IMG/VR virus record: IMGVR_UViG_3300028833_002727
Length of the DNA: 64,000 nucleotides
Reading direction: 5' to 3' (one strand)
Source of the DNA: a virus
Taxonomy: Duplodnaviria; Heunggongvirae; Uroviricota; Caudoviricetes
Part shown: piece by piece, positions 34,659-60,456 of the stretch
How the letters are laid out: each line of letters starts with the position of its first letter
Position numbering within the stretch: the first letter of the stretch is position 1
Position numbers and translations under genes: made by a program
Notes under the pieces: model-generated
Told to the model about the DNA's origin: nothing
What the model saw: only the letters and a program-made list of their open reading frames with translations
Databases searched by the model: none

Positions 34659-34959
34659 TATTTTTTAAATTATTCGTATATTTATTGTAGAAGAAATTAA
34701 AAAAGTAGACAAAAACACGTTACAACAAAATGATTAACAATTACACAAATATTATTAGTGCTGCCACATCTAGTTTATCAAACTTAGATGAACAACATTC
34801 ATGTGATCCAGCCAATAATGTCGCGTTGTAGGAGTTAATCGGAGATATAACTAAAAAAATAGACGAGTGTTTAGAAAGTGATTTTCCTCCTCCTACAATC
34901 AAAAGTAGCGTGGAGGTTTTTTAGTGCTTAAAAAGATTTTTTGCATTTTTTTCGTAAAA

Positions 34960-34995
34960 TATTTGGTTATTTGAAAAAAAAGCAGTATCTTTGCA
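34960..34995 (+). promoter_or_regulatory. Bacteroidetes sigma-A-type promoter. It is copy 1 of a 5-copy ~40-nt repeat.
   Basis: TTTG at 34962-34965 and TAtcTTTG at 34986-34993. The wider sequence AAATATTTGGTTATTTGAAAAAAAAGCAGTATCTTTGCACCAG is shared. Confidence 0.6.
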
Positions 34996-35080
34996 CCAGA
35001 AATTGAATGTCACGGATAAAAAGTTACGCGAAAGCACTTGACTTTTTGAAAAGATCAGTGATATTGAAATTAGAAACAAT

Positions 35081-35192
35081 GGGCTATTAGTTTAATGGAG
35101 TACGACGCGTCTATTAAAGAAGTTTAACTTCGACTCGTACGCTAGAATGCCAGGCAGTCCTGTTGAATGAGGTTCGATTCCTTGATAGTCCG
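35081..35192 (+). ncRNA. tRNA-like element A (112 nt). It has a 7-bp acceptor, a canonical T-arm and an unresolved core with an extra long hairpin.
   Basis: GGGCTAT pairs ATAGTCC. The T-arm is TGAGG-TTCGATT-CCTTG. The element lies ~70 nt downstream of promoter copy 1. Confidence 0.35.
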
Positions 35193-35217
35193 CAAAAAAA
35201 AATAAAAAAAATGCAAA

Positions 35218-35255
35218 AATATTTGGTTATTTGAAAAAATTGCCGTATCTTTGCA
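35218..35255 (+). promoter_or_regulatory. Promoter repeat copy 2
   Basis: TTTG at 35222-35225 and TAtcTTTG at 35246-35253. Confidence 0.55.
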
Positions 35256-35628
35256 CCAGATTTCAGTAATGAAGTCTACAAGTGGATAAGATTGAAACAA
35301 CGAAACATAGTCGACAGTTTCTATGTGGGGAGTGTTGGAAGAACAATAAATCCACACCAATGTGTTCTTTGACGTATTGATTGACTATAGAAAAAAGACA
35401 TGGAACGGTTGGGAATACCTCTCAACCACCAGATGCACCTGTTCCACGTTGTGAAACGCATTTGGGTTCGTCCTTTTATCTATTATATATATTATAAGGT
35501 GTAAGACTTGGCGAAATGTTGGGAATGAAAAGAAGCATTGATGAGTGTATATAATGATAATTGAAATAAACATTAAGGAATATATAACTGTAATTAAACC
35601 TTATAAAAAACTTAGTTCAGTTCAACTT

Positions 35629-36397
35629 GGCGCTGTGGTGGAATTGGTAGACACGAGGGACTTAATTCGTAATTGATTGATTATCAATACATTACAATTT
35701 GAGTGATACGGCACGAAAGTCCGTATTAGAACCTACCTAATTCGGTAGAAGTCCGTTGAGTATGTGTAGTATCACTTGTTGATGCAATAATAATGCGACA
35801 CTCATGTGTCACAGAGGCGGTTGAGAACCCGCCCGCATACAAATCCCATAGCATAAACAAAGATATGTGTGAGGGTGCTAAACAATAATGTATACGGAAA
35901 ATACCGAGCCAATATGCTATGCAAGGATGCTTCTGTTATAATAATCCATATCACTGTGGATGTTCGACGTTCACTCGTCGTGGAAAACAGTTTTAGACGT
36001 AAAAAGCGAAGTATAGTGATAGTGCGTAGAGACTTTACAGTAGGAACCTAAGTTAGAATTGTTATGTTAGAACGAAACTCGCGATCAATTGAGGGTATGT
36101 GTATTGCCGTTGATGATTGGTAACCATCTGATGCTTCGAGCATAAAAACGCCATGTTGCATGGAACGCACACAAATAGTAGAGGAGAGTGGCATAACAAC
36201 TTGCAAGATTCTAATATGGTTTAGAGCAAGTCCAGACTACAACAAACAACAAAACGGGTTTGACTCCCTTAGTAGGCTAACGACCCGCTGAACGAGAAAT
36301 CGTTATACGATGCTGTTGTTTGGCTATGGCAACATAGAGTAGTATGAAAATCCCTTGCCCAGTGATGGGCGTGCCGGTTCGAGTCCGGCCAGCGCTA
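35629..36397 (+). tRNA. tRNA-Leu(UAA) interrupted by an intron. Exons are 35629-35663 and 36347-36397.
   Basis: The 5' exon is GGCGCTG-TG-GTG-GAATTGGTAGA-CAC-G-AGGGA-CTT. The 3' exon is AAAA-TCCCT-TGCCCAGTGATGGGCG(long variable arm)-GCCGG-TTCGAGT-CCGGC-CAGCGCT-A73. The intron sits between U34 and A35. Confidence 0.7.
35664..36346 (+). ncRNA. Putative group I intron (~683 nt, no ORF) in tRNA-Leu(UAA)
   Basis: It lies at the canonical cyanobacterial/plastid trnL(UAA) position. The 5' exon ends in U and the intron ends in G. An IGS-like AAGTCC (35716-35721) is complementary to the exon GGACTT. A P7-like CAGACTA lies at ~36228. Confidence 0.5.
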
Positions 36398-36540
36398 CAA
36401 ACCTCCTTTCGTTAAAAACTCCTGGGTTTTCAGAGTTTCCAAATCTGGTTAGCAGAAGCCCTTTCTTTTTTTAAAAAATTAACAAAAAAATGTAATACTT
36501 TTCGAACTTTACAAGTATTTATTATAAAAGAAAGTAAATT

Positions 36541-37122
36541 ATGGATAGTATTAGATTTTGTAAAAAACATGGCGAATGTGAACACGTGTTAAGTTCTGGT
36601 AAGTGGCGTTGTAAAAAATGCCGTAGTGAAGCGGTACAAAAACGTAGAGATAAGATTAAACTAATGTCTATTGAATATAAGGGTGGAAAATGTGAAATAT
36701 GCGGATATGACAAATGTATAGATGCATTAGAATTTCATCATTTAAATCCAAATGAAAAAGATTTTGGTATTGCCGAAAAAGGGTACACACGTTCATTTGA
36801 TAAAGTAAAAGAAGAGTTAGATAAATGTATTTTAGTTTGTGCGAATTGTCACAGAGAAATACACCATAAAGATAAAAAAAGAAATGTTTATGAATTGTTA
36901 AATGAAATTCACAATAAACAAGAAAAAGCAATTACGTCTAAAAAAGAAAGAAAACAAATACCAACCATAGATGAATTTATATCAGTATTTAAAATGTATT
37001 TAAACTTTACACAAGTTGGAAAATATTTTGGTGTCACAGATAATTCTGTGAGGAAATGGTGTAAAAAATATGGTTTACCAATCCATACTAAAGAATTGTG
37101 TAGGTATATACATAACATGTAA
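36541..37122 (+). CDS. HNH homing endonuclease with a C-terminal HTH-like module
   Basis: GKCEICGY...EFHHLNPNEKD...CANCHREIHH. Conserved leader AAGTATTTATTATAAAAG upstream. The stop overlaps the tRNA-Asn start. Confidence 0.75.
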   Translation: MDSIRFCKKHGECEHVLSSGKWRCKKCRSEAVQKRRDKIKLMSIEYKGGKCEICGYDKCIDALEFHHLNPNEKDFGIAEKGYTRSFDKVKEELDKCILVCANCHREIHHKDKKRNVYELLNEIHNKQEKAITSKKERKQIPTIDEFISVFKMYLNFTQVGKYFGVTDNSVRKWCKKYGLPIHTKELCRYIHNM

Positions 37123-37199
37123 CCGTAGTCAAGTGGCCAACGACAGCAGACTGTTAATCTGCCCCGAAAGGTTCCCAGGTTCGAATCCTGGCGGTTGCG
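37119..37199 (+). tRNA. tRNA-Asn(GUU), atypical 12-nt variable region
   Basis: Acceptor GTAACCG/CGGTTGC. Anticodon arm GCAGA-CTGTTAA-TCTGC. T-arm CCAGG-TTCGAAT-CCTGG. Confidence 0.55.
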
Positions 37200-37730
37200 C
37201 AAAAATCCAACACACCATTCCGTAAGTGGTTGAGGTTGATGTCTTTGTAGAGTATAGCGGTTACGGACGTGATTTTCTACATCTGGCTAAAGGCAATAAT
37301 ATAGTGAAACCTGGTTATCACGGCGCCTAGAGTGCGCAATTCGGGTTCAAATCCTGGCTATTGACAATAAGAGAGGCATACAGCAAAACAAAAAACTATT
37401 TTTTTAAAAACATTGAATTTGGGTTTCAAAAACGTTATAAAAAAGTGCCTCTTGTACTCAAGTATATATAGCCGCCACCCCCAAGTACAAGGGGCACACC
37501 AGACTTACATGGTTATCTCTTTTCCTGGAGAGATTGTAAAATAGGGCATTAGGAGCGAGTTAGTTGGATCAGAACTTATCTGATTAGAGAATTGCCCGCA
37601 GTCTGCGAACGTAAATAAGCAGTAATGGTAGATATGGGGAGCACTGAATTACGTAATAGATGTTTCATGAAACTATCTAAAAGTGACAAGCAAGCCACTT
37701 TAGCGTGTGATAAAACCGCACAGGGCGCCG

Positions 37731-38966
37731 ATAGTTGAGGGACAACAACTTTAAAAACCTCTATGGAGAAGTACAATTCATGGCAAAGTATAGACGGGGT
37801 TGAGGTGGTGCGCACTGTACTATAAAAAGAGTAAGGATAAGGAAAATGCGTAGCCTCACTTATAGTTGAAGGAAAACAACTTTAAAAAAGACAATAACCT
37901 ATGAATAATTAGGTGAGTTAAACCAGCTACACAAATGCTGTATGTGATAGTGATAAAATGCAGCCATGGAGGCTAACAAAAAGATTGCAAACTTTTTGAA
38001 TGCATTAATAACTTCCATGATTAAATAGTTGAAGGAAAACAACTTTAAAAACCAATATTAAACCACGAAAAAGACTAGAAGTTACAGCGTTGCTCCATTT
38101 TAGCCGAGGACGAAGCCGTGTGGGTCACTATTGAAATGAAGACTCTTTCCGGTGGGGAGAGTGATATTACTTTCACTAATGGAGGTGGGAGTGATAGGAT
38201 AGGCCAAAAACAGCACTATGTGGTTTATATTTAAAGTATTGCGCTGGTGATGAGAAGATACCAGTACCACAGGCCGTAGAAAGCAAAGAGAAATAATTGC
38301 GCAATAAAACTCTTGGGCGTACTACTGATAAGCGAAGATAAAGGTTAAAACTAGGCTGCTTCGGATACTTCAATATAGTTGAAGGAAAACAACTTAAATG
38401 AACCAAATTTAACTCCTATCGTCTAGTGGTTTAGGACATGCCGCGGTAAAGACATTGGTTCGAATCCAATTGGGAGTTCTTTGTGAAGAAAAACGGCTTA
38501 TAAAAAGCAACTTAGAAAAGTCGAGGAACTTCTGTTTATGCAATTTGACATTACGTCACCAGTCGATATTCGATGAGGCTCTGAATAGGTCGCACCTTAT
38601 AAGTAGGGGAATTGAGTACATAAACAGCGGGAGAAAGGTAAACTCGTGGGCTGGTTCGCTCTCCCAAATTTATAGTTGAAGGAAAACAACTCTAAAAACC
38701 CATACAGATGGAGTGAGAGATACTCGATTCGGTTGAAGGTGTCCTGCCGATAACAACGAGACATATCCTAAACATCGGGATAATTTTGATGTTCGGTTAG
38801 TTAGATACCGCTTGATAGGTGTACAATGTCAAGTTGCTAATCGTTAATAGGCCGACAGGTAATCTGTTCTTATTACGCGAGTTGCCTGAGTTCGAACACG
38901 CTTCTTCCGAACAGAACAGAAAAGTATCTTTTAATTATAGTTGAAGGAAACAACTTAAAAAATCCC
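37731..38966 (+). repeat. Six copies of the hairpin motif TAGTTGAAGGAAAACAACTTTAAAAA in an ORF-free structured region
   Basis: Copies at 37731-37759, 37861-37890, 38025-38053, 38375-38400, 38671-38700 and 38937-38966. The stem is AGTTG/CAACT with an 8-nt loop. Spacing is irregular (127-347 nt). Confidence 0.7.
38410..38477 (+). pseudogene. tRNA-like (Glu/Val-type body) with a disrupted anticodon arm
   Basis: Acceptor ACTCCTA/TGGGAGT. D-arm GTCTAGTGGTTTAGGAC. T-arm ATTGG-TTCGAAT-CCAAT. No foldable anticodon stem. Confidence 0.4.
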
Positions 38967-39470
38967 AATAATGGTGATGAAAAGGTAGCACTTATATGCC
39001 TCGTAAGCATATGGTTATACAATTCCGGATTAAAGTATGACTTATTGACTTCAATTCAATCGTCACCGAAATTACATATAAGTTGGCAGACTTATATAAT
39101 GTCCTTTTGGACAACCTTATCGGTTAATGATACTACTCCGATGAATGATGTAAAAAATGGGCTTACTTAACATCTGCCCCCGAATAGTTTCAATGCACAC
39201 TGCCAATTTGCATTGTTAGGAAAGTCGGTGTTCGTTCAGAAATCTCCTGATATACGACTCTAACTCGATTATATCAGTGTGAAGTATCTTTTAGTATAGT
39301 GAAGCAATCCTACTCAGTGGAAAGTGAGGGTGTGAGTTCCCATATCCAAGAAACAGAAAAAAATCAGAACACATGGAAAATCATAATTTTCTTAAAAAGA
39401 GGCTTAGGATGTGAATTGGAACCGTTAAGCAAATGTATGATTTGACTATCAGGAATAGACTGATACTTTT

Positions 39471-39542
39471 GCCCCGTTCGTCTAGTGGCCCAGGACATCG
39501 CCCTTTCACGGCGGAAACTCGGATTCGAATTCCGGACGGGGT
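39471..39542 (+). tRNA. tRNA-Glu(UUC)
   Basis: GCCCCGT...GTCTAGTGGCCCAGGAC-A-TCGCC-CTTTCAC-GGCGG...TTCGAAT...ACGGGGT. Confidence 0.85.
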
Positions 39543-40829
39543 ACAACAAAAGATTACTTATTACTGATCTTCTACTATAAATTTTATAAGTGTTAGGATT
39601 GGAAGTGTCCATACTTAATGAGTGGTTGCCCACCGGATCTATTAACGCCCATTGGTAACAGATGGAAACGCAACTTAGTCGGATAAATGGAAAAAGAAAC
39701 TTTAAGTTCAATTTTATGTGAGTGTAACTGAAAAGGAATTGCATAAAATATATTTACCTTTGGTGTAAAAACACGCTTATATAATTTTTTTACGTATATT
39801 TAAAACGAAGAGAGACGTACAGCAAAACTCACACTTTATTGGAAAACAGCAAATTTTCTACCAAAAGCAAATTGTCTCTTGTAAATGCTTGAATACTTTT
39901 CATAAGCAACATATACGGAAGACGTACAGCAAAGCATTTTTAGGATAACACTTTTAATGTTAAATTCTTGTCTTCTGAACTACAGTTGGCAACTGACTTA
40001 TAGTTGCGGAGAAAATCGGGATGATAACCCGTTGACTGTTGTGTGTTTTCAACATGACGTGAACACTCGCTGAGGTTAGAATTTTTCCGCATAGGCTAAT
40101 CACCAGAAATTCAAATTTTTCAACTCCACCATTTCATTGGTGGACAAAGACACGAAACCCTAACACGGTACTAAATTCGTGACTGCCAGGTTATAAGGTT
40201 GCTCCTGACAAAAATAGTTCTTAGGTGAACGGTATGCCAATAAGCTTTTAATTAGCGCCTGAAGCAGACTTTCTTCGGTGGGTGAAAGTCAAACCTGGGT
40301 CGCGCCAGGATTGGTAGCAAATAATAACTTATGTGCCTGAATAAGCGGTAGACTGCTGCTAAAGGACGTATTGTTGTACTGAAAAGTACGCGGTGCGGTT
40401 AACGGGCATTACGAAGCATAAAGTTGAATTAGCCACGGTTGGCCAACCGTGAGTGACGTAAGAACAGGACAAATCGTGTTTTATGACTGAGGTCTGTATC
40501 CTGTTGGAGGTAATCATTCCTCCCACCCATTCAAACTAAGAGAGTTGCTAACTCTTAGGGGTGTGACTGAATAATGTGCGTAGTGTTTGGTTTTATAGGT
40601 AGTCAGGAATCCTATCATTTGTTATTACCTTTTATGTCTTATGTTGTATTATTCTTTTTTGTGAGATATAAACAACTGTCCCAAGACATTAGACTTGTGA
40701 AAGGCTGTAGTGTTTGTTTTATTAGTTTTCTGTCAAAGTGCAGTAACCTTGACGTCAGGACAAAACATGAAAACTAATTTTTATCGTGGCAGAGTGAAAC
40801 GGATATGTCGATAAGCATTTCGGCAGACA

Positions 40830-40881
40830 TCATCAGAGGCTCATAACCTCTGGATAGTGGGTTCGACTCCCGCAGCCGCAA
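40830..40881 (+). other. Partial tRNA-like: anticodon arm (CAU), T-arm and 3' acceptor strand without a matching 5' half
   Basis: AGAGG-CTCATAA-CCTCT, GGATA, GTGGG-TTCGACT-CCCGC, AGCCGCA-A. No complementary TGCGGCT upstream. Confidence 0.3.
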
Positions 40882-40887
40882 CAATAT

Positions 40888-49394: not shown

Positions 49395-49433
49395 ACCTTG
49401 ATACTGTGAACAAACGCGTATCAAGGTTTTTTT
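49395..49433 (+). terminator. Rho-independent terminator
   Basis: ACCTTGATA...TATCAAGGT stem followed by TTTTTTT. Confidence 0.55.
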
Positions 49434-49440
49434 ATTGCAA

Positions 49441-49478
49441 AATATTTGGTTATTTGAAATAAAAGTAGTATCTTTGCA
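49441..49478 (+). promoter_or_regulatory. Promoter repeat copy 3
   Basis: TTTG at 49445-49448 and TAtcTTTG at 49469-49476. Confidence 0.55.
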
Positions 49479-49490
49479 TCGTGAAATAAT

Positions 49491-49575
49491 GACCTCGTAG
49501 CTCAGCTGGTTTGCGTATGCTTAGAGCACCTGCCTTTTAAGCAGGGGGTCGTGGGTTCGAATCCCACCGGGGTCA
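49491..49575 (+). tRNA. tRNA-Lys(UUU) variant with a ~10-nt insertion in the D-loop (85 nt). It is a possible pseudogene or variant.
   Basis: GACCTCG/CGGGGTC. D-loop AGCTGGTTTGCGTATGCTTA. CCTGC-CTTTTAA-GCAGG. GTGGG-TTCGAAT-CCCAC. Confidence 0.5.
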
Positions 49576-49738
49576 CAAGAATCAATTCGGTGGATGGTAA
49601 CATGTACATTGGGCGGTTGTACACTATGTGTCGACGGGAGTGCATGACTTGGTTCTTTTTTTGAAAATTAAAATAAAAAACGTATATTTATAAACGAAGA
49701 GAGACTTACAGCAAAACAACATTATCTATCAATCCATG

Positions 49739-50916: not shown

Positions 50917-51095
50917 TGCGGGGTAGAGCAGAGGCAGCTCGTCAGGCTCATATAATGTGATAAGCATTAACAATCTTATCGAGACTATTGTTTAAAGTTC
51001 CGTATTATAATCGGACTGGAAATCAGCTGTAAGTGGGTTCGAAACCCATCAATAGTCCAACCTGAAGGTCGGTGGTTCGAGTCCACCCCCCGCAA
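50917..51095 (+). tRNA. tRNA(CAU) (Met or Ile2) carrying a ~107-nt insertion/intron in the anticodon loop (50954-51060)
   Basis: TGCGGGG/CCCCGCA acceptor. GAGC-AGAGGCA-GCTC D-arm. TCAGG-CTCATAA-[107 nt]-CCTGA. AGGTC. GGTGG-TTCGAGT-CCACC. The insertion carries its own hairpins. Confidence 0.5.
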
Positions 51096-51251
51096 CACTT
51101 TTGATGGTTTGAATTAGGAAATCACACGCAGAGCGCGAGGTGTCATGGAGCGCACTCTACCGTTCGAGATGGAGTACACGGCGTTTTTTCACGGAAAGTA
51201 TCCAATCCTAGGATTTTTGTTTACTGGAAGTGGTTGTACGGAACAACATTT

Positions 51252-51351
51252 GCCGAGATAGTGCAGTGGTTAGCATGTCGAATCAATACTGACGTGAAAA
51301 CGTTATAGGGGTTGCTCTTCGAAGACTGAGGTTCGATTCCTTGTTTTGGCT
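51252..51351 (+). ncRNA. tRNA-like element C (100 nt), same T-arm as element A
   Basis: GCCGAGA/TTTTGGC with two G-U pairs. GTGC-AGTGGTTA-GCAT. A 5-7 bp stem with the 9-nt loop AATCAATAC. A 31-nt variable region. TGAGG-TTCGATT-CCTTG. Confidence 0.35.
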
Positions 51352-51583
51352 CAAAAAAAAATGAAAAAAAAGTTGATAAATGTTCACTTTTTAAAATAAT
51401 AAGGTATATTTATTATAGAAACAAAACAAAAAACATGGGAAGTAATTAAAATATGAAGTTGTATCTTGGACATATGGTGTATGGGTTTGGCTACCGTTTT
51501 GGTTGGCTAGGTGACTCTGTGTGTTCATAGGTAGAGGTTTTTTGAAACATGTTTGAAAACTATATATAAAGCCATGAGGCAAA

Positions 51584-52772: not shown

Positions 52773-52797
52773 CAAAAAAATTAAAAAAAAGTGCAAA

Positions 52798-52835
52798 AAT
52801 ATTTGGTTATTTGAAAAAAAAGCAGTATCTTTGCA
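52798..52835 (+). promoter_or_regulatory. Promoter repeat copy 4. It is near-identical to copy 1, including ~40 nt of downstream leader.
   Basis: TTTG at 52802-52805 and TAtcTTTG at 52826-52833. Shared ...GCACCAGAAATTGAA...AGATCAGTGATA. Confidence 0.6.
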
Positions 52836-52978
52836 CCAGAAATTGAAAACAAGCGAACATTGAAATAAGATCAGTGATAAAAATAGTTAGTAACTAAGAC
52901 TTGGGTTAAACTCCCATGTTGGCGGTGACTGCATCGAGATAGTGTGAAAATGATAGCACGAGTTATTAACTATAAAAT

Positions 52979-53051
52979 GGTGCAGTAGCTCAGTTGGTAG
53001 AGCAGCAGACTGAAGATCTGCGTGTCGGCGGTTCGATTCCGTCCTGCACCA
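52979..53051 (+). tRNA. tRNA-Phe(GAA)
   Basis: GGTGCAG/CTGCACC. GCAGA-CTGAAGA-TCTGC. GGCGG-TTCGATT-CCGTC. Confidence 0.85.
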
Positions 53052-53172
53052 CAAAAATACCGAGGCGTTGGTGGGCGTTACACAAGTTAAACCAATTTAG
53101 CGGGTCTCTGTGTAATACTGGATATTCTGGATAATATAGGCCGATTCAGGAATATGTGTAGGTATTTTTTAA

Positions 53173-53460: not shown

Positions 53461-53631
53461 AAAAGACTGTGTAGGTAGGGGTTTGTAGCGCTAACTGCAA
53501 ATCAACCGCCGACAATGGCACAGAAAGAAAGCACATGGATGCGGTATTGGGGCATAACGTCCCCTTTATCTCAACCACCTTTAGCGGGGTAAAGTGTGTT
53601 AGTATGGAATGTTGGTTCAATTCCAACCACA
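53461..53631 (+). tRNA. tRNA-like with a ~97-nt insertion in the anticodon loop. Candidate anticodon GCA (Cys). D-arm unresolved.
   Basis: Perfect acceptor GACTGTG/CACAGTC. GCTAA-CTGCAAA-[~97 nt]-TTAGT. GTTGG-TTCAATT-CCAAC. Confidence 0.35.
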
Positions 53632-53841
53632 GTCTCCCATAGTTTGGTAGTATCTTATACGCGTTAAAAAACTACCCGGTGATGTATTATCCCACAGCCG
53701 AATTATTAAGTTGCCACTTAATAAAATTGTTGGGAAAAAGATGGTTGTAAGCCCCGGCAAGGGTGAGGCACCTGGCGTTTCGAGATAGAAATGGAGATAT
53801 TTTTGCCGATTTATCGAAGTGAAGAAATCCGATTCGTAAAG

Positions 53842-53923: not shown

Positions 53924-53938
53924 TAAATTTATTAAAAA

Positions 53939-54163: not shown

Positions 54164-54169
54164 TTATTT

Positions 54170-54245
54170 GCAGGAATAGCTCAGTTGGTATTAGAGCGCT
54201 GCCTTGCCAAGGCAGAGGTCGCGAGTTCGAATCTCGTTTCCTGCT
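54170..54245 (+). tRNA. tRNA-Gly(GCC)
   Basis: GCAGGAA/TTCCTGC. CTGCC-TTGCCAA-GGCAG. GCGAG-TTCGAAT-CTCGT. Confidence 0.85.
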
Positions 54246-54564
54246 CAAAGAAACAGTTCAGGCAACGAATTGAATGGGGTGTGTAAAGGATATACGTACA
54301 AGAGTTCTTTTTGAAAGAAGTCCTTTATACTATGAAACTCGATTGAAGGCAAGAGATATGAGGATATGGCCATTCATTACGTTTCGGTGAATTTTTGGGG
54401 TTTCCCATTCGTAGGTATGACGAACCTATTCCGTGAGGGGCCGTAAGGTACAACGCAACATGACAGGTATAAGGAAATCGTATGTTAAAACGATGAACGT
54501 GTAAGGTGCCTCCGATAAGCGCTTAGTCAAGTCCGTAGTTCGCAAATTGACTGTTTCTGTTTTT

Positions 54565-54650
54565 GCAGGTGTCGCCTAGTGGACGATGGCGCCGGATTTC
54601 CAATCCGGAGTGGCGAAAGCCCCACGAGAGTTCGAATCTCTTCACCTGCT
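54565..54650 (+). tRNA. tRNA with anticodon UCC (Gly codons) on a type-II body (3-bp D-stem, 17-nt variable arm)
   Basis: GCAGGTG/CACCTGC. GCC-TAGTGGACGAT-GGC. CCGGA-TTTCCAA-TCCGG. GAGAG-TTCGAAT-CTCTT. Confidence 0.5.
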
Positions 54651-54669
54651 CATAAAATTTAAAAATAAC

Positions 54670-55002
54670 ATGGAATATACGTACAAAGGAAAAGAGGATA
54701 GAGCAACTGCTGAAAAATTGAAACAAGGTGAAACTTGTTGGGTATTAGGCATTGGTAATTCAATGACTCCAGTACTAAAAAACAAACAAGCGGTAATTTG
54801 TGCCCCAGTTACAGAGGAAACTGTGTTGAAAAAGAAAGATATTGTGCTTGCCAAAGCAAGAGGACATTATTACTTACATTTCATACATGGTATCAAGGGA
54901 AATGGTGAAGAATTCCTGATCGGTAACAATCATGGGCATATGAATGGATGGGTAAGTAGAAATTGCGTATTCGGAAAAGTAGTAGAAATACTACCTGAAT
55001 AA
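54670..55002 (+). CDS. S24 (LexA/UmuD-like) peptidase domain protein
   Basis: VLGIGNSMTPVLKN (Ser in GNSM) and DIVLAKARG (Lys). Confidence 0.45.
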   Translation: MEYTYKGKEDRATAEKLKQGETCWVLGIGNSMTPVLKNKQAVICAPVTEETVLKKKDIVLAKARGHYYLHFIHGIKGNGEEFLIGNNHGHMNGWVSRNCVFGKVVEILPE

Positions 55003-55007
55003 TAAAT

Positions 55008-55089
55008 GCGTCTGTGGCGGAATGGGTAGACGCGCCAGACCTAGGATCTGGTCCCGCAAGGGGTGTGGGTTCGAGTCCCACCAGACGCA
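55008..55089 (+). tRNA. tRNA-Leu(UAG), type II, unusual C at position 33
   Basis: GCGTCTG/CAGACGC. GCG-GAATGGGTAGA-CGC. CCAGA-CCTAGGA-TCTGG. Variable arm CCC-GCAA-GGG. GTGGG-TTCGAGT-CCCAC. A73. Confidence 0.6.
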
Positions 55090-55268
55090 CAACAATCAAG
55101 GGGGCGATGTAGTTCGTTATTATCGAGAACAAGCATGAACAGTGAAGCCTTGACGTAAAGTACCACATATAGAGTATAGGTGAAAACGAGTAACTGATTA
55201 ACTTATGTAGGAGTACACAGAGATGTGAAGAAGGTAACTAGGTGGAGCACGTAAGATTCCACCCCTGT

Positions 55269-55345
55269 GGCGAGATAGCTCAACGGGCTAGAGCGCGGCA
55301 CTCATAATGCCGAGGTTATGGGTTCGAGTCCCGTTCTCGCTACCA
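55269..55345 (+). tRNA. tRNA-Met(CAU) with encoded CCA
   Basis: GGCGAGA/TCTCGCT. CGGCA-CTCATAA-TGCCG. ATGGG-TTCGAGT-CCCGT. A-CCA. Confidence 0.8.
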
Positions 55346-55366
55346 AAAATTTTATGTATATTTATT

Positions 55367-55501
55367 ATGGATAATCCATGTATAAATTGTTCTGAAATCT
55401 ATAGAAAACGTCCAAGATGCAAAAGGTTGAAATGTCCTATGTATTTTGAACATTTGAAAGAAGATGAGGAATTTAAAAAATACGTCGAAGGGCATCCTTA
55501 A
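55367..55501 (+). CDS. Small Cys-rich protein (44 aa)
   Basis: MDNPCINCSEIYRKRPRCKRLKCP. The start is placed after the tRNA. Confidence 0.3.
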   Translation: MDNPCINCSEIYRKRPRCKRLKCPMYFEHLKEDEEFKKYVEGHP

Positions 55502-55784
55502 TTATTGGAATTATAGTCGAATTGCGCACCGACTCTAAATATAGATGTGCTCCAGATATTGCGTGGCATTGCTGGAAGGTTATTGCGAATAGTCTTAACC
55601 TAACGCCTGAACAGATTGGACTAAAACCGCGTCAAATAAAACGAGAGGATAGCACCTTGTTTGGAAACGAAAAGACACGCCACTCGCAGGGATGGCCTCC
55701 TGTAAAATGATTGTTTAGAAATTGGTTGTTGCCGCCGTCCTAAAGTTTCAGAAAGTAAGGAAACTATGGAAAATGGTAACATAC

Positions 55785-55858
55785 GGGTCTGTCGTCTAGT
55801 GGTTTAGGACATCTCCCTTACAAGGAGAAGATCGCTGGTTCGACTCCAGCCAGACCCA
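55785..55858 (+). tRNA. tRNA-Val(UAC)
   Basis: GGGTCTG/CAGACCC. TCTCC-CTTACAA-GGAGA. GCTGG-TTCGACT-CCAGC. Confidence 0.85.
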
Positions 55859-56081
55859 CTCGCGAATTGGTGTAATAAACATAGGAACCTATCGGAAAAT
55901 TGTTGTATGAAAAACGACAACATGGTCCAAGGTGAAGATAACGCTGGTGCACACGTTATTGGATCTGATGGTTGATAGAGTGTACGTACACAGCACAGCC
56001 TCGTACATTGCGGGAAGATTACGTGGAAGTCGTAGTTCGCAACCAACAAAACAAAAAAAGTTGAGAAATCAATTTAATTTT

Positions 56082-56155
56082 GCCCCGTTAGCTCAGCTGA
56101 ATAGAGCGTCCGGCTACGAACCGGAAGGTCGCAGGTTTGAGTCCTGCACGGGGTA
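56082..56155 (+). tRNA. tRNA-Arg(ACG)
   Basis: GCCCCGT/ACGGGGT. TCCGG-CTACGAA-CCGGA. GCAGG-TTTGAGT-CCTGC. Confidence 0.85.
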
Positions 56156-56372
56156 CAAATAATTACGCAATCCATCGCGCCCATTCGATAGAAGTAAGTG
56201 GTGAGGAAGTTCAGGACACTCATTTGGGAGTGAAAGTCTAAGTATAGGTGGTTACCCAAATTATTGCCTCCAGGGTAAGACGAATAGTTAAATGATGGAT
56301 ATAGGTACAGAATCCTGGCTATTACGTAATTATTTTATTACAACAATAATAATAAACAAAAAAACAAAAGAC

Positions 56373-56699
56373 ATGAAGAAATTTTTTAATTTACTATTAG
56401 TGATGTTTTTTGTAGTTGGTTTGACATCATGTGCATCTACTAGTAGAATAAGCAACAAATGGGTTAGTGATTCTAGAGTAGAAATTGTAAATGAGCAAAC
56501 TGTGATTTTTAGGGATGTGGTTAAAATTGAGATATTTTCAAACAACCCAACACAAATTACTTATGTGTATGATTTGGATCATAGTACAAACGTGAAAGTT
56601 GCAAGAGGCTCATTCAATGTTGAATTAAAACGTGGTGATTATTTAATTCAATCAAACCGTAAAATCACAAAAACATTGTACGATGTTATTATAGAGTAA
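56373..56699 (+). CDS. Lipoprotein (Bacteroidetes-type lipobox)
   Basis: MKKFFNLLLVMFFVVGLTSC signal peptide with the L-T-S-C lipobox. Confidence 0.55.
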   Translation: MKKFFNLLLVMFFVVGLTSCASTSRISNKWVSDSRVEIVNEQTVIFRDVVKIEIFSNNPTQITYVYDLDHSTNVKVARGSFNVELKRGDYLIQSNRKITKTLYDVIIE

Positions 56700-56707
56700 T
56701 AACATTC

Positions 56708-56778
56708 AACATAATAGCTCAATGGTATAGAGCAATTTCGTATGAAATGATTGCGGGTTCGAATCCCGCCTTATGTTC
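56708..56778 (+). pseudogene. tRNA-like with an aberrant anticodon arm (4-nt loop)
   Basis: AACATAA/TTATGTT acceptor. GCTC-AATGGTATA-GAGC. GCGGG-TTCGAAT-CCCGC. No canonical anticodon loop. Confidence 0.35.
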
Positions 56779-56791
56779 AATATTATTAAAC

Positions 56792-56865
56792 GCCGCTATC
56801 GTCTAAGTGGTTTAGGACTTTACCCTCTCAAGGTAAGAATGGGGGTTCGAGGCCCCCTGGCGGTA
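56792..56865 (+). tRNA. tRNA-Glu(CUC)
   Basis: GCCGCTA/TGGCGGT with G-U pairs. TTACC-CTCTCAA-GGTAA. GGGGG-TTCGAGG-CCCCC. Confidence 0.7.
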
Positions 56866-57022
56866 CTAACATTTAAATTATAACAATATGGTAAATGTTG
56901 AAAAATTGTATGCAATTGCAAAGCCAAGAGACGAAAAGGCACACAGAAAATTTATGTTGAGGTACAAATATAGATTTTTTATACATATTTGGCAAGATTT
57001 GCAATTGTTTTGGTACAAACTT

Positions 57023-57094
57023 GCAGGTATAGCACAACGGCTAGTGCACTAGTTTCCCATACTGGGGATGCCAGTTCGATTCTGGTTACTTGCT
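57023..57094 (+). tRNA. tRNA-Gly(CCC)
   Basis: GCAGGTA/TACTTGC. CTAGT-TTCCCAT-ACTGG. GCCAG-TTCGATT-CTGGT. Confidence 0.65.
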
Positions 57095-57209
57095 CAACGT
57101 TGCAGGTTCTTATTGGAATGAAAGTGTGGAAAATCCACTGCTAATAAGATGAAATAAACTTGAATACGAGACTGCAAATGACTCAGACAATGCGGCTGAG
57201 TCACAAAAT

Positions 57210-57291
57210 GCACGAGTGGTGGAATTGGTAGACACGCTAGACCAAGGATCTAGTCCCTTCGGGGGTGTGGGTTCGAGTCCCACCTCGTGTA
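57210..57291 (+). tRNA. tRNA-Leu(AAG), type II, C at position 33
   Basis: GCACGAG/CTCGTGT. GTG-GAATTGGTAGA-CAC. CTAGA-CCAAGGA-TCTAG. Long variable arm. GTGGG-TTCGAGT-CCCAC. A73. Confidence 0.55.
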
Positions 57292-57312
57292 CAAACAAAG
57301 TTTAGATGGATT

Positions 57313-57543
57313 ATGAAGAATATTGAACGAGACATTGAAGAGTTGACATGGGCTATCAAAACGTTCCAGAAATGCGTTCCAGAACAGTATAGGAGTCCAA
57401 TTAACGTACTTATTGGTAAATATTATTCAAAGCATCCATCTGATGAAATAATAACGAAAATTGTTTCTATTATTGATAAGTGTGACAAGAAAAAATACGA
57501 TACCATTGAGAAACAAGTAAAATATGTGATTGGGGAATTATAA
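57313..57543 (+). CDS. Hypothetical protein
   Basis: ORF MKNIERDIEEL... The start is placed after the tRNA. Confidence 0.35.
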   Translation: MKNIERDIEELTWAIKTFQKCVPEQYRSPINVLIGKYYSKHPSDEIITKIVSIIDKCDKKKYDTIEKQVKYVIGEL

Positions 57544-57749
57544 TGAGTGTAGAGGAAGCACAAGAGAACTGTAAAAGTGGGTGGAAATTAAATAATAACG
57601 AGAAAGTGGTTAATGCTATTATCAACCGCATTAACAAATGTGATGGGAATTGTCCATGCTTGAATGATAGCGTCGATAAACATTGTCCATGTTCAAACTA
57701 CAGAGAGAAAGATTATTGCTGCTGTGGTTTGTATGTAAAAAAAGATTGA
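57543..57749 (+). CDS. Small Cys-rich protein
   Basis: CDGNCPCLNDSVDKHCPCSNYREKDYCCC. Confidence 0.35.
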   Translation: MSVEEAQENCKSGWKLNNNEKVVNAIINRINKCDGNCPCLNDSVDKHCPCSNYREKDYCCCGLYVKKD

Positions 57750-57931
57750 TATTCAAATAAAAACACGAATTAACGTGGTTCGTATCTGGCGAAGACTGAT
57801 AGACCGTAGGTTGCAAATGAAAGTCATCCTCCCTATGGCTGGTTTGAGATAACATCAATAAGAACATATCCCGGATAACTACCCTCTGAGTAAGGCAGCA
57901 ATAAGGGCAGAGGGATTTGAATATTTTTTAT

Positions 57932-58013
57932 GCCTCTGTGCTGGAATTGGTAGACAGGCCTGACTCAAAATCAGGTGCCGAAAGGCGTGTGGGTTCGAGT
58001 CCCACCAGAGGTA
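57932..58013 (+). tRNA. tRNA-Leu(CAA), type II
   Basis: GCCTCTG/CAGAGGT. CTG-GAATTGGTAGA-CAG. CCTGA-CTCAAAA-TCAGG. Variable arm GCC-GAAA-GGC. A73. Confidence 0.8.
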
Positions 58014-58194
58014 CACACCGAATATGTGTAGGTGTATTGTAACGTTACTAGCCCACAGTCGAGAGTCCTGGGCAATATAAAATGGACTACCAAGCCGTCT
58101 TGAGGAACTATAGGCGGAAGTTGTTTGACTTAAAAACAGGCTAAAGTTAGGTGTTTTATAAAGATTAAACACTATTCAGGTGAAATTTCTGTTG

Positions 58195-58266
58195 GGCCTG
58201 GTAGCGCAGTGGTAGCGCGTCCCCATGGTAAGGGGAAGGTCGTGGGTTCGAGTCCCACCTGGGATG
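58195..58266 (+). tRNA. tRNA-Thr(GGU)
   Basis: GGCCTGG/CTGGGAT (one mismatch). GCGC-AGTGGTA-GCGC. TCCCC-ATGGTAA-GGGGA. GTGGG-TTCGAGT-CCCAC. Confidence 0.55.
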
Positions 58267-58284
58267 CTAAAATTTAAGAAACAT

Positions 58285-58620
58285 ATGAGAAGTAAAGAAG
58301 AAATGATAGATTTGTACGAATCTATGTATGCTGATAATATGTTATGGTTTGTCCTTGGTGGTTTAGTTTCGTCTGATACGTTTGCGCCATACATGTATGA
58401 TAATAATAAAGAATTATTTAGTACATATAGAGAAAACATTCATCAATTAGAAAATTTAATAATTTATTTACCAGAAAGTAATATTCCAAACAAAGAAAAG
58501 AAAAAAGCAATAAAACTTGCTAAACGTGGGATAAAAATTTTGAAAAATGAACACAACAATATAATAGATATTAAAGAAAAACGTGGTGAATTTTTACATG
58601 GTGAATTTGAGAAAATTTAA
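58285..58620 (+). CDS. Hypothetical protein
   Basis: ORF. The start is placed after the tRNA. Confidence 0.4.
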   Translation: MRSKEEMIDLYESMYADNMLWFVLGGLVSSDTFAPYMYDNNKELFSTYRENIHQLENLIIYLPESNIPNKEKKKAIKLAKRGIKILKNEHNNIIDIKEKRGEFLHGEFEKI

Positions 58621-58631
58621 ACACAGATAAA

Positions 58632-58979
58632 ATGAAAACTTTACGATTTTTTAAACAGGATTACAAATGGTACGCTGATGTATCAAATCATACGTTAGAA
58701 GATAACGAAATGGTGTTCGGAAGTGACACCATGCTTGATATATTTGCAGGTGGTAAAGAAAGTGTAACACTTCAACTATCAGATGATTTTGAAGATGGTT
58801 ACGAGAAGCCAATGCTTGCATTACACCGCAAAGAGCATGATGATGATGGAGCATTTTATGGTGTGGAAGTGTTGACAACTATATTTCGTGGTGAATTATC
58901 AGATATATGGATTTGCAACGTGACACACGATGTATTTGGTGAACACCCAGAAGATATTTACATTTACAGTATTGAGTAA
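58632..58979 (+). CDS. Hypothetical protein
   Basis: ORF. Confidence 0.4.
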   Translation: MKTLRFFKQDYKWYADVSNHTLEDNEMVFGSDTMLDIFAGGKESVTLQLSDDFEDGYEKPMLALHRKEHDDDGAFYGVEVLTTIFRGELSDIWICNVTHDVFGEHPEDIYIYSIE

Positions 58980-59010
58980 GTGTAAGAAAAATAACACGAG
59001 TGATAAATAG

Positions 59011-59259
59011 TTGGTAAAAATGACATTAAAAGAAATAGTACAAGGCACTGCTGATTTAAGTTGCGTACTTTCTGGTGGTATTGCTGTATATATATTAACA
59101 GACGTTAACGGAAAGAAATATCAAATTGAAATTGATTTGTCAGATAGGCATGATGTTGGCGAAACTGCCACGTTTGCTCTTCACTACGATAAAGCGATTT
59201 ATTTGATGCGTTGGATTAGACGTGCTATGGAACATGATAAACTAATTGCATTAGATTAA
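59011..59259 (+). CDS. Hypothetical protein
   Basis: ORF. Confidence 0.4.
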   Translation: MVKMTLKEIVQGTADLSCVLSGGIAVYILTDVNGKKYQIEIDLSDRHDVGETATFALHYDKAIYLMRWIRRAMEHDKLIALD

Positions 59260-59623
59260 ATGGGGCTGTTTGGCTTTGACTGGAAGATTGATACGATTGT
59301 AAGCATGTAGAGAATGAGAAATCTCTTTAAAAGACTTGACAACACAATAAATGGCGAAAGAACTTACGCTCTTGCTGCTTAATCGAAGCACAGTAGATTA
59401 ACTTTTTCAGATGCAAGGCATTTGAGCAAGACATCACTCCAAGCCGAGTCTGTGGGCTTAATGGATATAGTGGTGCTGGAATACATAGAATAGATGTTAC
59501 ATGCTGTGATGTAATGTTGAAGTTTTAGCAGATAAGGTGACTTTTGATGGTTTGAGTCGTATAGTCGCTCGAAAATCTAAATCAAACTAAACATGTAGAA
59601 AGCGAAAATATTACTTGCAACAC

Positions 59624-59650
59624 ACGGGTTCGACTCCCGTCAGCTCCACC
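59624..59650 (+). other. Isolated tRNA 3' fragment (T-arm plus acceptor 3' strand plus CC)
   Basis: ACGGG-TTCGACT-CCCGT-CAGCTCC-A-CC. No complementary 5' half in the window. Confidence 0.4.
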
Positions 59651-59655
59651 TACAT

Positions 59656-59729
59656 TCTCTCATAGCTCAACTGCATAGAGCACATTTCTCCTAAAAATGG
59701 GGTTCCGAGTTGAAGTCTCGGTGGGAGAG
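59656..59729 (+). tRNA. tRNA-Arg(CCU) with a non-standard T-loop TTGAAGT
   Basis: TCTCTCA/TGGGAGA. GCTC-AACTGCATA-GAGC. CATTT-CTCCTAA-AAATG. CCGAG-TTGAAGT-CTCGG. Confidence 0.6.
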
Positions 59730-59748
59730 CAAAAATTTTTATTTTATA

Positions 59749-60359
59749 TGGCAGAAAACAAAGATTGGACTGGCAATAGTCGTTCGGTATATGGAACAAT
59801 CGGAGCAAGCAATCATACAGAAGGTGAACGCGAGGAAAATGACTATTACGCAACATCGCCGATTGCGATGGAGTTGATATTAGAGAAAGAATCATTTAAT
59901 AAAGACATTTGGGAGTGTGCAGCAGGTGGAGGACACTTATCAAAGGTATTACGCAAACATGGACACAATGTTCGTTGCAGTGATATTATAGATAGAACTG
60001 GTGACACTGAAATACTTGACTTTTTGACGTACAAAGGTACATGGGATGGTGATGTTGTTACCAATCCGCCTTACAAATACGCTCAAGAGTTTGTTGAAAA
60101 GGCATTAGAGATAGTTCCAGATGGTAACAAAGTAGCAATGTATCTTAAACTTACTTTTCTGGAAGGTAAGAAGCGTCAAAAGATGTTCAAGAAATATCCA
60201 CCTAAATACGTTTATGTTGCCGCAGGGCGTATGGGGTGTGCCAAAAATGGTGAGTTTTCTGATATGGAACATGAATATGAAGCGGGCGCAGTGGCATTTG
60301 CCTGGTTTATATGGGAAAAAGGTTACAAAGGTGAGCCAATAATAAGGTGGTTTAATTAA
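59749..60359 (+). CDS. N6-adenine DNA methyltransferase (small; motif I before motif IV)
   Basis: ECAAGGGHL (motif I) and VVTNPPY (motif IV). The start is placed downstream of the tRNA overlap. Confidence 0.7.
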
Positions 60360-60394
60360 AATCTTGGAGAAATCTGAGATTTTTTTTTTATTTT

Positions 60395-60430
60395 TTTTTG
60401 GTTATTTGAAAAAAAAGTATTACCTTTGCA
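60395..60430 (+). promoter_or_regulatory. Promoter repeat copy 5, driving the TonB-dependent receptor gene
   Basis: TTTG at 60397-60400 and TAccTTTG at 60421-60428. It shares TTTGGTTATTTGAAAAAAAAG with copies 1-4. Confidence 0.6.
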
Positions 60431-60456
60431 GCAGAATTTAAAAAACAATGTAAAAT

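Follow-up and report, generated by a model that had tools for sequence, protein, structure and literature searches.

Coliphage early promoters that are read by the host RNA polymerase lie near the host consensus, as in T7 (A1-A3), T5 (early) and lambda (PL and PR), and the E. coli rrn P1 and tRNA promoters feature an UP element and a G+C-rich discriminator. In middle promoters of the T4 MotA type, by comparison, an activator box replaces the upstream host element and a phage activator is needed. For the Bacteroidota, the published consensus of the primary sigma factor consists of a -33 TTTG and a -7 TAnnTTTG separated by an AT-rich spacer (PMC7366714, which cites Bayley et al., 2000, for these sigma-ABfr promoters). 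Transcription start sites have been mapped for this promoter class (PMC7366714; PMC9723704), and the -7 box has been placed at -12 to -5, which puts the G of TTTG at -33 (PMC9723704). The Bacteroides fragilis phage promoter P_BfP1E6, which the host polymerase reads, serves as a strong constitutive part for engineering Bacteroides (PMC11554821, citing Whitaker et al., 2017).

Here we describe six copies of an element of this -33/-7 type in a 64,000-nt stretch of phage DNA (the window). With a probability of roughly 85%, judged from sequence, we read them as strong, near-consensus promoters served by host RNA polymerase carrying the sigma-ABfr-type primary sigma factor.

Six copies of the element and their downstream genes

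Five copies had been predicted, at 34960, 35218, 49441, 52798 and 60395, and these positions proved right to within ~3 nt. A 43-mer is present in identical form at 34957-34999 and 52797-52839 and in a form with 3 mismatches at 35217-35259 (0 matches in shuffled sequence), and repeat finding with alignment added the more diverged copies at 49429-49482 and 60381-60434. A sixth copy, absent from the original prediction, was found on the minus strand at 27995-28050. When the window was scanned with a weight matrix trained on unrelated loci, the six copies scored 44-52 bits, the rest of the window 12 bits or less and shuffles below 4 bits, giving a total of six copies against a chance expectation of 0. 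The copies and their neighbouring features are:

20219-27983 (-): gene block headed by copy 6; first ORF, 104 aa, at 27983-27669
27995-28050 (-): copy 6; -33 TTTG at 28034-28031, -7 element TACCTTTG at 28010-28003; predicted start ~27998
34946-35006 (+): copy 1; -33 TTTG at 34962-34965, 20-nt spacer, -7 element TATCTTTG at 34986-34993; predicted start ~34998
35081-35193 (+): tRNA-like gene with an internal insertion, ~83 nt past the predicted start of copy 1
35206-35262 (+): copy 2; -33 at 35222-35225, -7 at 35246-35253; predicted start ~35258
35629-36398 (+): split tRNA gene, by eye Leu, with anticodon loop CTTAA|AA and an interruption of ~681 nt
49395-49433 (+): terminator-like hairpin and T-run, ACCTTGATAC...GTATCAAGGT, directly 5' of copy 3, read from the sequence alignment
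49429-49485 (+): copy 3; -33 at 49445-49448, -7 at 49469-49476; predicted start ~49481
49499-49576 (+): tRNA-Lys(UUU), 18 nt past the predicted start of copy 3
52786-52846 (+): copy 4, directly 3' of tRNA-Trp; -33 at 52802-52805, -7 at 52826-52833; predicted start ~52838
52979-53052 (+): tRNA-Phe, the first gene after copy 4
60361-60390 (+): weak terminator-like hairpin and T10, 5' of copy 5
60381-60436 (+): copy 5; -33 at 60397-60400, -7 element TACCTTTG at 60421-60428; predicted start ~60433
60457-63980 (+): operon after copy 5, with a TonB-dependent receptor (60457-62580), a small ORF (62591-62848) and a NadR-like protein (62862-63980)

In every copy, an intact -33 TTTG is followed, after exactly 20 nt of A/T-rich spacer, by TAnCTTTGCA, the -7 element TAnnTTTG being TATCTTTG in four copies and TACCTTTG in two; the columns invariant in all five plus-strand copies read T.TTTGGTTATTTGAAA.AA..G...TA.CTTTGCA.C. 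All six copies are intergenic and co-oriented with the next gene, and they precede interrupted tRNA genes, tRNA-Lys, tRNA-Phe, the TonB-receptor/NadR operon and a minus-strand methylase/exonuclease operon. The predicted start lies 24 nt from the TonB-receptor ATG and 15 nt from the first minus-strand ORF, and the 18 nt before tRNA-Lys match the leaders of host tRNA genes (15-18 nt); longer leaders are predicted for copies 1 (~83 nt), 4 (~140 nt, including a 75-nt insertion relative to the phage relative L018) and 2 (~370 nt). On all the sequence evidence, the six elements fit the -33/-7 geometry of the Bacteroidota primary sigma factor, and the predicted Bacteroidetes-type promoter is supported by geometry, position, host counterparts and conservation in distant phage relatives. 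A sigma-70 identity (-35 TTGACA / -10 TATAAT, 16-18 nt spacer) was rejected, with none of the six elements listed as such a site; sigma-70-type sites in the region show a weak, non-significant enrichment (82 vs 67.2 expected, sd 7.3), as does another count of them (61 vs 49.6 expected, sd 7.5).

The positions that vary among copies are the degenerate positions of the consensus, and two subtypes can be distinguished: copies 1-4, which precede RNA genes, carry GCAGTATCTTTGCACCAGA, and copies 5 and 6, which precede protein genes, carry GTATTACCTTTGCAGCAGA. Between copies 1 and 4, identity extends over 52 nt (34955-35006 and 52795-52846). About 40 nt of shared downstream leader had been claimed for this pair, which is only loosely true: identity ends 12 nt past the -7 box, and beyond it there is gapped similarity, with a common 13-mer, AAGATCAGTGATA, at 35051 and 52867 (leader alignment score 32; shuffles averaged 17 and reached at most 28).

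The proposed service to tRNA/RNA genes and to the TonB receptor gene fits the positions of copies 1-4 and of copy 5, and the sixth copy appears to extend it to the methylase/exonuclease block. Copies 1 and 2 form a tandem pair, 260 nt apart, and a T-tract with TGCA lies upstream of the -33 element of copy 1. The tRNA-like gene after copy 1 was called in ARAGORN intron mode and matches the Rfam tRNA model (28.6 bits) with a 46-nt insertion; it is kept in a relative (L140), where the inner hairpin changes on both strands, from GAAG/CTTC to GGAG/CTCC. The split tRNA gene is the first recognizable gene after copy 2, past a 370-nt unassigned leader; a search for Rfam intron families gave no match in it at E<=1. 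Genes for HNH and DUF559 endonucleases are dispersed across the tRNA array.

The hairpin before copy 3 was not listed by a simple terminator scan, which demands G+C-rich stems, and the one before copy 5 is conserved in L018, where a T to C change turns a G-U pair into G-C. In the operon after copy 5, Pfam assigns Plug and TonB_dep_Rec_b-barrel domains to the receptor, and CTP_transf_like and AAA_28 domains to the NadR-like protein. Among the genes behind copy 6 are those for an N6/N4 DNA methylase (23133-22345) and a DNA-repair exonuclease (21508-20219), which are compatible with early genes and prove nothing. Only six such sites are present in 64 kb that hold ~60 ORFs and more than 40 RNA genes, so that the majority of genes would have to depend on long read-through or further signals; the tRNA region contains two other conserved classes of motif (class B and hairpin), unlike host promoters.

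Conservation of the element in other phages

Among 189 unselected promoters from IMG/VR phage contigs, the consensus is a-TTTGG-ttaTtTcAAA-...-TAtCTTTGCA, and the window element carries the commonest base of this set at 24 of 26 unforced positions. Conservation of the flanks well beyond the -33/-7 consensus had been emphasized in the original prediction; it is real, but it arises because an extended consensus is general to this promoter class, in hosts and in many phages, and is nothing peculiar to this phage. Our literature search found no paper describing the extended form.

A relative from a 388-kb contig (L140), in which a neighbouring protein is 56% identical, has an orthologue of copy 1 with an identical 32-nt core, including the spacer that is invariant in the six copies. 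Core identity to L140 is 95% for copy 1 and 93% for copy 2, compared with 52% and 41% for the adjacent leaders. Orthologues of copy 6 occur at L015:3310 and L140:5301, and that of copy 4 (L018:50) has a single substitution, which falls at a degenerate position. Three relatives (L018, L019 and L020) also have the TonB-receptor module, with an NMN transporter gene behind it; in L019, the receptor gene has a promoter in the same place with another spacer, and TTTGG, the 20-nt spacing and TATCTTTGCAGC are unchanged. Several near-consensus copies have been kept by selection in this one phage genome, and other phages have "house" spacers of their own (GCCAWNTC... in L019; GTTATCTCA-T8 in a 412-kb IMG/VR phage).

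Could the repeats instead have arisen passively in the tRNA array, through segmental duplication, gene conversion or the action of homing endonucleases, with no promoter function? The HNH and DUF559 genes throughout the array, the extra leader sequence common to copies 1 and 4, and the two subtypes, which suggest a duplication history, would suit such an origin. We find it barely credible, however, as the edges of homology are those of a promoter (~-38 to +5) with unrelated flanks, variation is confined to consensus-degenerate positions, one copy lies on the opposite strand outside the array, and cores remain 93-95% identical where neighbouring sequence is down to 41-52%.

Host counterparts and the polymerase involved

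A search of 185,579 species genomes with a 27-base core pattern gave 12 exact matches, every one in gut or rumen Bacteroidales (by our arithmetic, ~1e-3 or fewer would be expected by chance), the best being in Paludibacteraceae, Prevotellaceae and the rumen MAG RUG716. In seven of them a tRNA gene (tRNA-Leu, tRNA-Cys or tRNA-Met) follows after 15-30 nt, and one more precedes an HU gene, positions which suggest that the matching host sites act as promoters; the loci also carry housekeeping genes (RNase E/G, TyrRS and SufB). Promoters in the same loci that were not selected by the pattern show extended features too (e.g., the tRNA-Thr promoter in L003). Upstream of the host counterparts lie phased A/T tracts, and a G+C-rich box, CCGCTTTYG, separates their -7 element from the gene; at this place the phage copies carry the A/T-rich CAGAAATT. 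The predicted Bacteroidetes host holds and is narrowed by the core matches, which provide a sequence-based host call, gut or rumen Bacteroidales, for an uncultivated and probably jumbo phage.

Sigma appropriation of the MotA type was rejected, the host -33 element being intact in all six copies and identical sequences occurring in host chromosomes. It is also very improbable that the elements are read by a phage-encoded sigma factor or RNA polymerase from elsewhere in the phage genome. Most of that genome lies outside the window, and a Lak-type megaphage relative has a gene for a sigma-70-family protein beside its TonB-receptor gene; yet the elements match the host consensus and real host promoters exactly, whereas a phage-specific signal would be expected to differ from the host's, as the class B and hairpin motifs do, and the window yielded no gene for a sigma factor or a polymerase.

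One point that counts against simple host recognition is the spacer, whose conservation goes well beyond what contacts with sigma would by themselves demand and so leaves room for an extra bound factor. In a composite arrangement, the host-type promoter would carry in its invariant spacer, GGTTATTTGAAAAAAAAG, a site for a host or phage regulator, which could be a global stable-RNA/housekeeping factor or a phage repressor or activator setting timing. Such an arrangement would accommodate the invariance of the spacer among the six copies and L140, the retention of house spacers by other phages, and the presence in hosts of the exact spacer before tRNA and HU genes, which form a coherent group by function. 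Nevertheless, we regard it as unlikely: most spacer positions hold the commonest base of the 189 unselected promoters, so that much of the invariance is accounted for by nearness to the consensus; the window yielded no candidate gene for a regulator; and host chromosomes free of phage carry the very same sequence, so that its recognition needs no phage factor.

Under the preferred reading of host-polymerase promoters, we infer that transcription starts at the elements, that it depends on the host sigma factor and that the promoters are strong or early. Each would comprise an A/T-tract upstream region (with TGCA at ~-45 in the four RNA-gene copies), an extended -33 element, TTTGGTTATTTGAAA, a spacer bearing a homopolymeric A-tract, and an extended -7 element, TAyCTTTGCA, at -12 to -3, with initiation at a purine five bases past TTTG. 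Copies 1-4 would serve the array on the plus strand, with its more than 40 tRNA genes, the tandem copies 1 and 2 at its head and copies 3 and 4 as internal re-initiation points, while copy 5 would drive the TonB-receptor/NadR nutrient-uptake operon and copy 6 a divergent operon of DNA-metabolism genes. Because the element is the sequence found before Bacteroidales tRNA and HU genes, the phage RNA genes would be presented to the host polymerase like host stable-RNA genes.

A more far-reaching joint reading, which strikes us as rather doubtful, is that the element belongs to an undescribed class of "super-promoter" in gut Bacteroidales, reserved for genes of stable RNAs and of the nucleoid (tRNA, HU) and copied by jumbo phages. 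Its ~34 fixed nt may include the spacer and an upstream TGCA/A-tract module, jumbo phages may plug arrays of more than 40 tRNAs into the host's strongest transcription channel, and the host CCGCTTTYG box downstream of the -7 element may have been exchanged for an A/T-rich start region. If this were true, the box swap would uncouple phage RNA synthesis from host growth-rate or stringent control.

As far as sequence can tell, the locus is a clear, if ordinary, example of host RNA polymerase being used by a phage; the mechanism is as expected for such a phage and by itself raises no new question. The copies mark likely transcription units within a very large phage tRNA array, and the extended consensus—that is, a-TTTGG-ttaTtTcAAA-A/T tract-TAyCTTTGCA, with the start 5 nt past the TTTG of the -7 box—could help to predict promoters and to design strong parts for Bacteroidales.

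Comparison with known systems

At the level of the whole locus, the large tRNA array with a tmRNA resembles those of huge phages, including the Lak megaphages of Prevotella (MK250019; a 660-kb Lak-type contig). The TonB receptor is 55% identical to its homologue in a Lak-type phage, and relatives lie on 388-kb contigs; the phage has no DNA-level similarity to catalogued phages, and no such promoter is present at the TonB-receptor locus of the Lak relative.

Like P_BfP1E6, which is valued for its strength, the elements are phage-borne and probably read by the host polymerase, a likeness of description; the phage and the host genus differ. They also recall coliphage early promoters, with several near-identical, near-consensus host-sigma promoters per genome, A/T-rich upstream regions, and early functions or RNA genes downstream, although the sigma specificity differs and the window copies would mainly serve a very large tRNA array. 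The resemblance to E. coli stable-RNA promoters lies in the host counterparts at tRNA and HU genes, with their phased upstream A/T tracts and G+C-rich box; the phage copies depart from it in having the A/T-rich sequence in place of that box. The closest match is to the sigma-ABfr promoters, with which the elements share both boxes, the AT-rich spacer, the -33 and -12 to -5 spacing, a location upstream of genes and matches in Bacteroidales chromosomes. They differ in that ~34 nt are fixed in the phage elements, compared with 12 in the sigma-ABfr consensus, the additional fixed parts being TTTGG with TTATTTGAAA, the A-tract, a C at position 4 of the -7 box, and the CA past that box.

The predicted promoter repeat and its downstream genes

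The window is phage DNA: among its products are a DNA-repair exonuclease and a tail-fibre protein bearing an endosialidase-chaperone domain. Between 35 and 60 kb, no fewer than 34 tRNA genes and one tmRNA gene form an array on its plus strand, with several interrupted tRNA genes in addition. The original prediction described five copies of a Bacteroidetes-type promoter here, and all five are real: its 43-mer has two perfect matches, 34957-34999 and 52797-52839, and a third with three mismatches, 35217-35259 (matches in shuffled sequence: 0 of 100 shuffles), and two more diverged copies, at 49429-49482 and 60381-60434, were recovered by repeat finding and alignment. A sixth copy, on the minus strand, had been overlooked; a regular-expression scan of both strands (TTTG-N18-22-TAnnTTTG) placed its TTTG at 28034-28031 and TACCTTTG at 28010-28003. 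Scored with a weight matrix trained solely on unrelated loci, copies 1-6 reach 44-52 bits, against peaks below 4 bits in shuffled sequence, and scanning the window with this matrix revealed no extra degenerate copies above 12 bits.

Copies of the predicted promoter repeat and what lies around them
Copy 1, 34946-35006 (+): about 83 nt, then a tRNA-like gene with an internal insertion (35081-35193)
Copy 2, 35206-35262 (+): 260 nt past copy 1; an unassigned stretch of 370 nt, then a tRNA gene split by ~681 nt (35629-36398)
Copy 3, 49429-49485 (+): preceded by a terminator-like hairpin; tRNA-Lys 18 nt downstream
Copy 4, 52786-52846 (+): immediately 3' of tRNA-Trp; tRNA-Phe ~140 nt downstream
Copy 5, 60381-60436 (+): preceded by a hairpin and T10; TonB-dependent receptor gene (ATG 24 nt on), then a NadR-like gene
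Copy 6, 27995-28050 (-): head of a minus-strand block; 104-aa ORF 15 nt on, the block running to a DNA methylase and the exonuclease

Promoters of the Bacteroidota primary-sigma type are well known. Their consensus comprises TTTG near -33 and TAnnTTTG near -7, separated by an AT-rich spacer (PMC7366714), and a start-site map in Flavobacterium puts the -7 box at -12 to -5 (PMC9723704); this register, applied to the copies, places the G of their upstream TTTG at -33. The starts predicted in the same register, at the fifth base past the -7 box (34998, 35258, 49481, 52838 and 60433 on the plus strand, 27998 on the minus strand), are purines in every copy, and that of copy 5 lies 24 nt 5' of the ATG of the TonB-receptor gene. 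Among standard signals, sigma-70-type sites showed a weak, non-significant enrichment, and a simple terminator scan showed none.

All six copies consist of TTTG, exactly 20 nt and then TAnCTTTGCA, and the columns unchanging in the alignment of copies 1-5 are T.TTTGGTTATTTGAAA.AA..G...TA.CTTTGCA.C. Copies 1-4 read GCAGTATCTTTGCACCAGA, most of them with a TGCA about 10 nt (20 nt in copy 1) 5' of the -33 box, within A-/T-tracts; copies 5 and 6 read GTATTACCTTTGCAGCAGA and lack this upstream TGCA. Copies 1 and 4 are identical over 52 nt, extending just 12 nt beyond the -7 box, after which there remain gapped similarity and one common 13-mer, AAGATCAGTGATA, that is not enriched elsewhere in the window; the leader of about 40 nt that these two copies were said to share is therefore only loosely right.

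For the RNAs downstream of copies 1 and 2, Rfam (E<=1) recognized the tRNA-like gene alone and no intron or other family; folding was uninformative for that gene, and the 373-nt stretch 3' of copy 2 gave z = -2.6 with no recognisable structure. Compared with L018, a phage relative ~90% identical to the window, 75 nt (52896-52970) are inserted in the leader that separates copy 4 from tRNA-Phe. Upstream of copy 6, about -70 to -100 from its predicted start, lies a G+C-rich inverted repeat, TTCCCGGGA...ACGTCCGGTAACCTCCGGGTC (28065-28097, minus strand). Retained amid diverging surroundings in the relative L015 and also in L140, a distant relative, this repeat is a possible regulatory site of the divergent intergenic region. 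An in-frame TAG in a small ORF (34730-34933) raised the matter of stop-codon recoding, which was ruled out because the standard code leaves ORFs as long as 1606 aa uninterrupted.

Counterparts in host genomes

One genome from each of 185,579 species was searched with a 27-base core pattern, TTTGGTTATTTGAAANAANNGNNNTANCTTTGCA, which gave 12 matches, for a chance expectation that we calculate at about 1e-3 or less, AT-rich DNA included. All 12 fall in gut or rumen Bacteroidales (Paludibacteraceae, Prevotellaceae, Ca. Minthosoma, Ca. Colicola and unclassified MAGs), which bears out the assignment of the host to Bacteroidetes. Seven of them sit 15-30 nt 5' of tRNA genes at three independent loci (Leu-CAA, four MAGs; Cys-GCA, two; Met-CAT, one), and one lies upstream of an HU gene, whose promoter is 90% identical to copy 1 over 67 nt. 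The matched loci encode RNase E/G, TyrRS and SufB and are thus chromosomal rather than phage-derived. Promoters at these loci that had not been selected by the pattern, such as that of tRNA-Thr in L003, likewise have TTTG[G/C], with TAT following after a few bases, an A-tract and TAyCTTTGCA.

With TTTG-N20-TAnCTTTGCA in 6/6 copies and the same core 5' of host tRNA and HU genes, the best-supported reading is the one originally advanced, namely that these elements are predicted host-sigma-type promoters, strong and near-consensus, for the host polymerase. The six promoters would drive the tRNA array as well as two protein operons. A sigma factor encoded by the phage is unlikely to be what recognizes such elements, because their sequence equals that of real host promoters.

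The host tRNA and HU promoters (L003, L004, L007, L009 and L011-L014) carry a G+C-rich CCGCTTTYG directly after the -7 box, a position at which all phage copies have A/T-rich, CAGAAATT-like sequence. This box is possibly a discriminator-like control element, absent from the phage copies; its relevance to growth-rate control is speculation.

Extended consensus and conservation among phages

A looser pattern matched more than 118 stretches in IMG/VR, many on contigs of 200-412 kb that carry multiple copies and some, among the matches listed, directly upstream of tRNA genes. From the loci among the matches listed, 189 unique promoters were collected that fit the generic TTTG-N20-TAnnTTTG alone and do not match the search pattern; in this set an A stands at -1 of TTTG in 71% and a G after it in 80%, followed by ttaTtTcAAA, an A-/T-tract and TAtC (C in 86%) TTTG, with CA next in 87-89%. 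Conservation well beyond the -33/-7 boxes, as first noticed in the window, is indeed present: between -12 and +14, 24 of the 26 unforced positions in the window element carry the commonest base of these 189 listed promoters, which argues that this conservation is a general extended consensus of the promoter class, found in near-perfect form in the window. A metagenome scan with an RNA-type pattern returned two contigs, both unrelated to the window. One of them, the phage-like L016 (JAEEGL017387391.1), has promoters of the form aaataaatctaatttta-TTTGG-N-GTAGTATCTTTGCACCGAAATT, and on its minus strand (1823-13889) at least 15 same-strand promoters are arranged one per small gene.

Among catalogued phages, megablast of window positions 1-20000 against 50,697 GenBank genomes gave no match, tblastn with the exonuclease found relatives below 30% identity only, and a 63-nt promoter query found weak matches only, in Microviridae, crAss-like, Lak and other phages of Bacteroidota or gut origin. 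For the TonB-receptor protein, an exact look-up returned no record, and none of its relatives turned up when IMG/VR was searched. In the relatives L015 and L018, both ~90% identical to the window, copies 6, 4 and 5 are kept, with changes at degenerate positions only; in L018 the TonB-receptor gene is separated from the copy 5 promoter by three inserted genes. In L019, whose receptor is 79% identical, a promoter with a different spacer occupies the equivalent site, retaining TTTGG, the 20-nt spacing and TATCTTTGCAGC, and three further copies occur in that locus's own style.

The strongest test of conservation is the comparison with L140, a locus from a 388-kb contig on which a neighbouring protein is just 56% identical and copies 1, 2 and 6 are all present. 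The cores of copies 1 and 2 are 95% and 93% identical, as against 52% for the leader after copy 1, 41% for the sequence after copy 2 and 73% for the tRNA-like gene between them. Sequence comparison indicates that the whole core, spacer included, is under purifying selection. Copies could also arise by passive duplication, which is unlikely because the conserved block coincides with the promoter boundaries and is retained in distant relatives. The main rival, that some factor may additionally bind to the tightly kept spacer, is compatible with recognition by the host polymerase.

Neighbouring elements and relation to known systems

A second promoter-like motif, ACTTTTT-N(12-16)-rrTATTTATWATA, occurs on the plus strand at 9509, 34679, 36516, 41614, 48268, 49254, 49685, 50086, 51407, 51735 and 55359. 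The ORFs whose ATG it precedes by 12-25 nt lie within the tRNA array, and three of them are HNH endonuclease genes. The motif is unlike the host consensus and, being kept in L140 (10597, 11841 and 17747), may be read by a phage-specified factor. Within the non-coding 37400-39470, six copies of ATAGTTGAAGGAAAACAACTTTAAAAA (37731, 37862, 38025, 38375, 38672 and 38937), each forming a hairpin (stem 5 bp, loop 8 nt) with an A-run behind it, separate non-coding segments of 130-350 nt; one copy lies ~10-20 nt 5' of a tRNA-like gene (38412-38478), and seven are conserved in L140 (13275-15266). This element could be a processing signal or a phage-specific small-RNA promoter.

The Leu(UAA)-like tRNA gene at 35629-36398 is split in its anticodon loop by ~681 nt, with no Rfam intron family at E<=1, and four other tRNA genes are interrupted by 21-107-nt insertions (35081-35193, 50917-51096, 51252-51352 and 53464-53639); the Asn (82 nt), Thr (86 nt), Gln (87 nt) and Gly (87 nt) tRNAs are unusually long but otherwise normal. 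The tmRNA (59262-59650) encodes the tag peptide GERTYALAA, as in L018 (6577-6966), and a Thg1-family tRNA-His guanylyltransferase gene just 5' of the array (30438-31238) is kept in the relatives L140, L142 and L143.

Downstream of copy 5, the module at 60457-63980 comprises the TonB-dependent receptor, a small ORF and a NadR-like protein (NMN adenylyltransferase/kinase). In L018, L019 and L020 (10001-14231) a PnuC-type NMN transporter comes next, and L019 adds further NAD-salvage genes, for NAPRTase, NAD synthase, an isochorismatase-family protein and NUDIX; homologues occur on 380-660-kb phage contigs, a Lak-type megaphage among them. From its gene content the module looks like a cassette for NAD-precursor uptake and salvage.

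A literature search found no report of promoters with such a consensus in phage genomes, nor any description of the extended consensus itself in the searchable literature. The analysis is of modest value, in that it refines the host call, marks transcription units and defines an extended consensus. Arrays of tRNA genes are familiar from huge phages, and relatives of this phage are about 388-412 kb in size. A promoter from a B. fragilis phage already serves as a standard strong part (PMC11554821). The TonB receptor of the window is 55% identical to that of a Lak-type megaphage.
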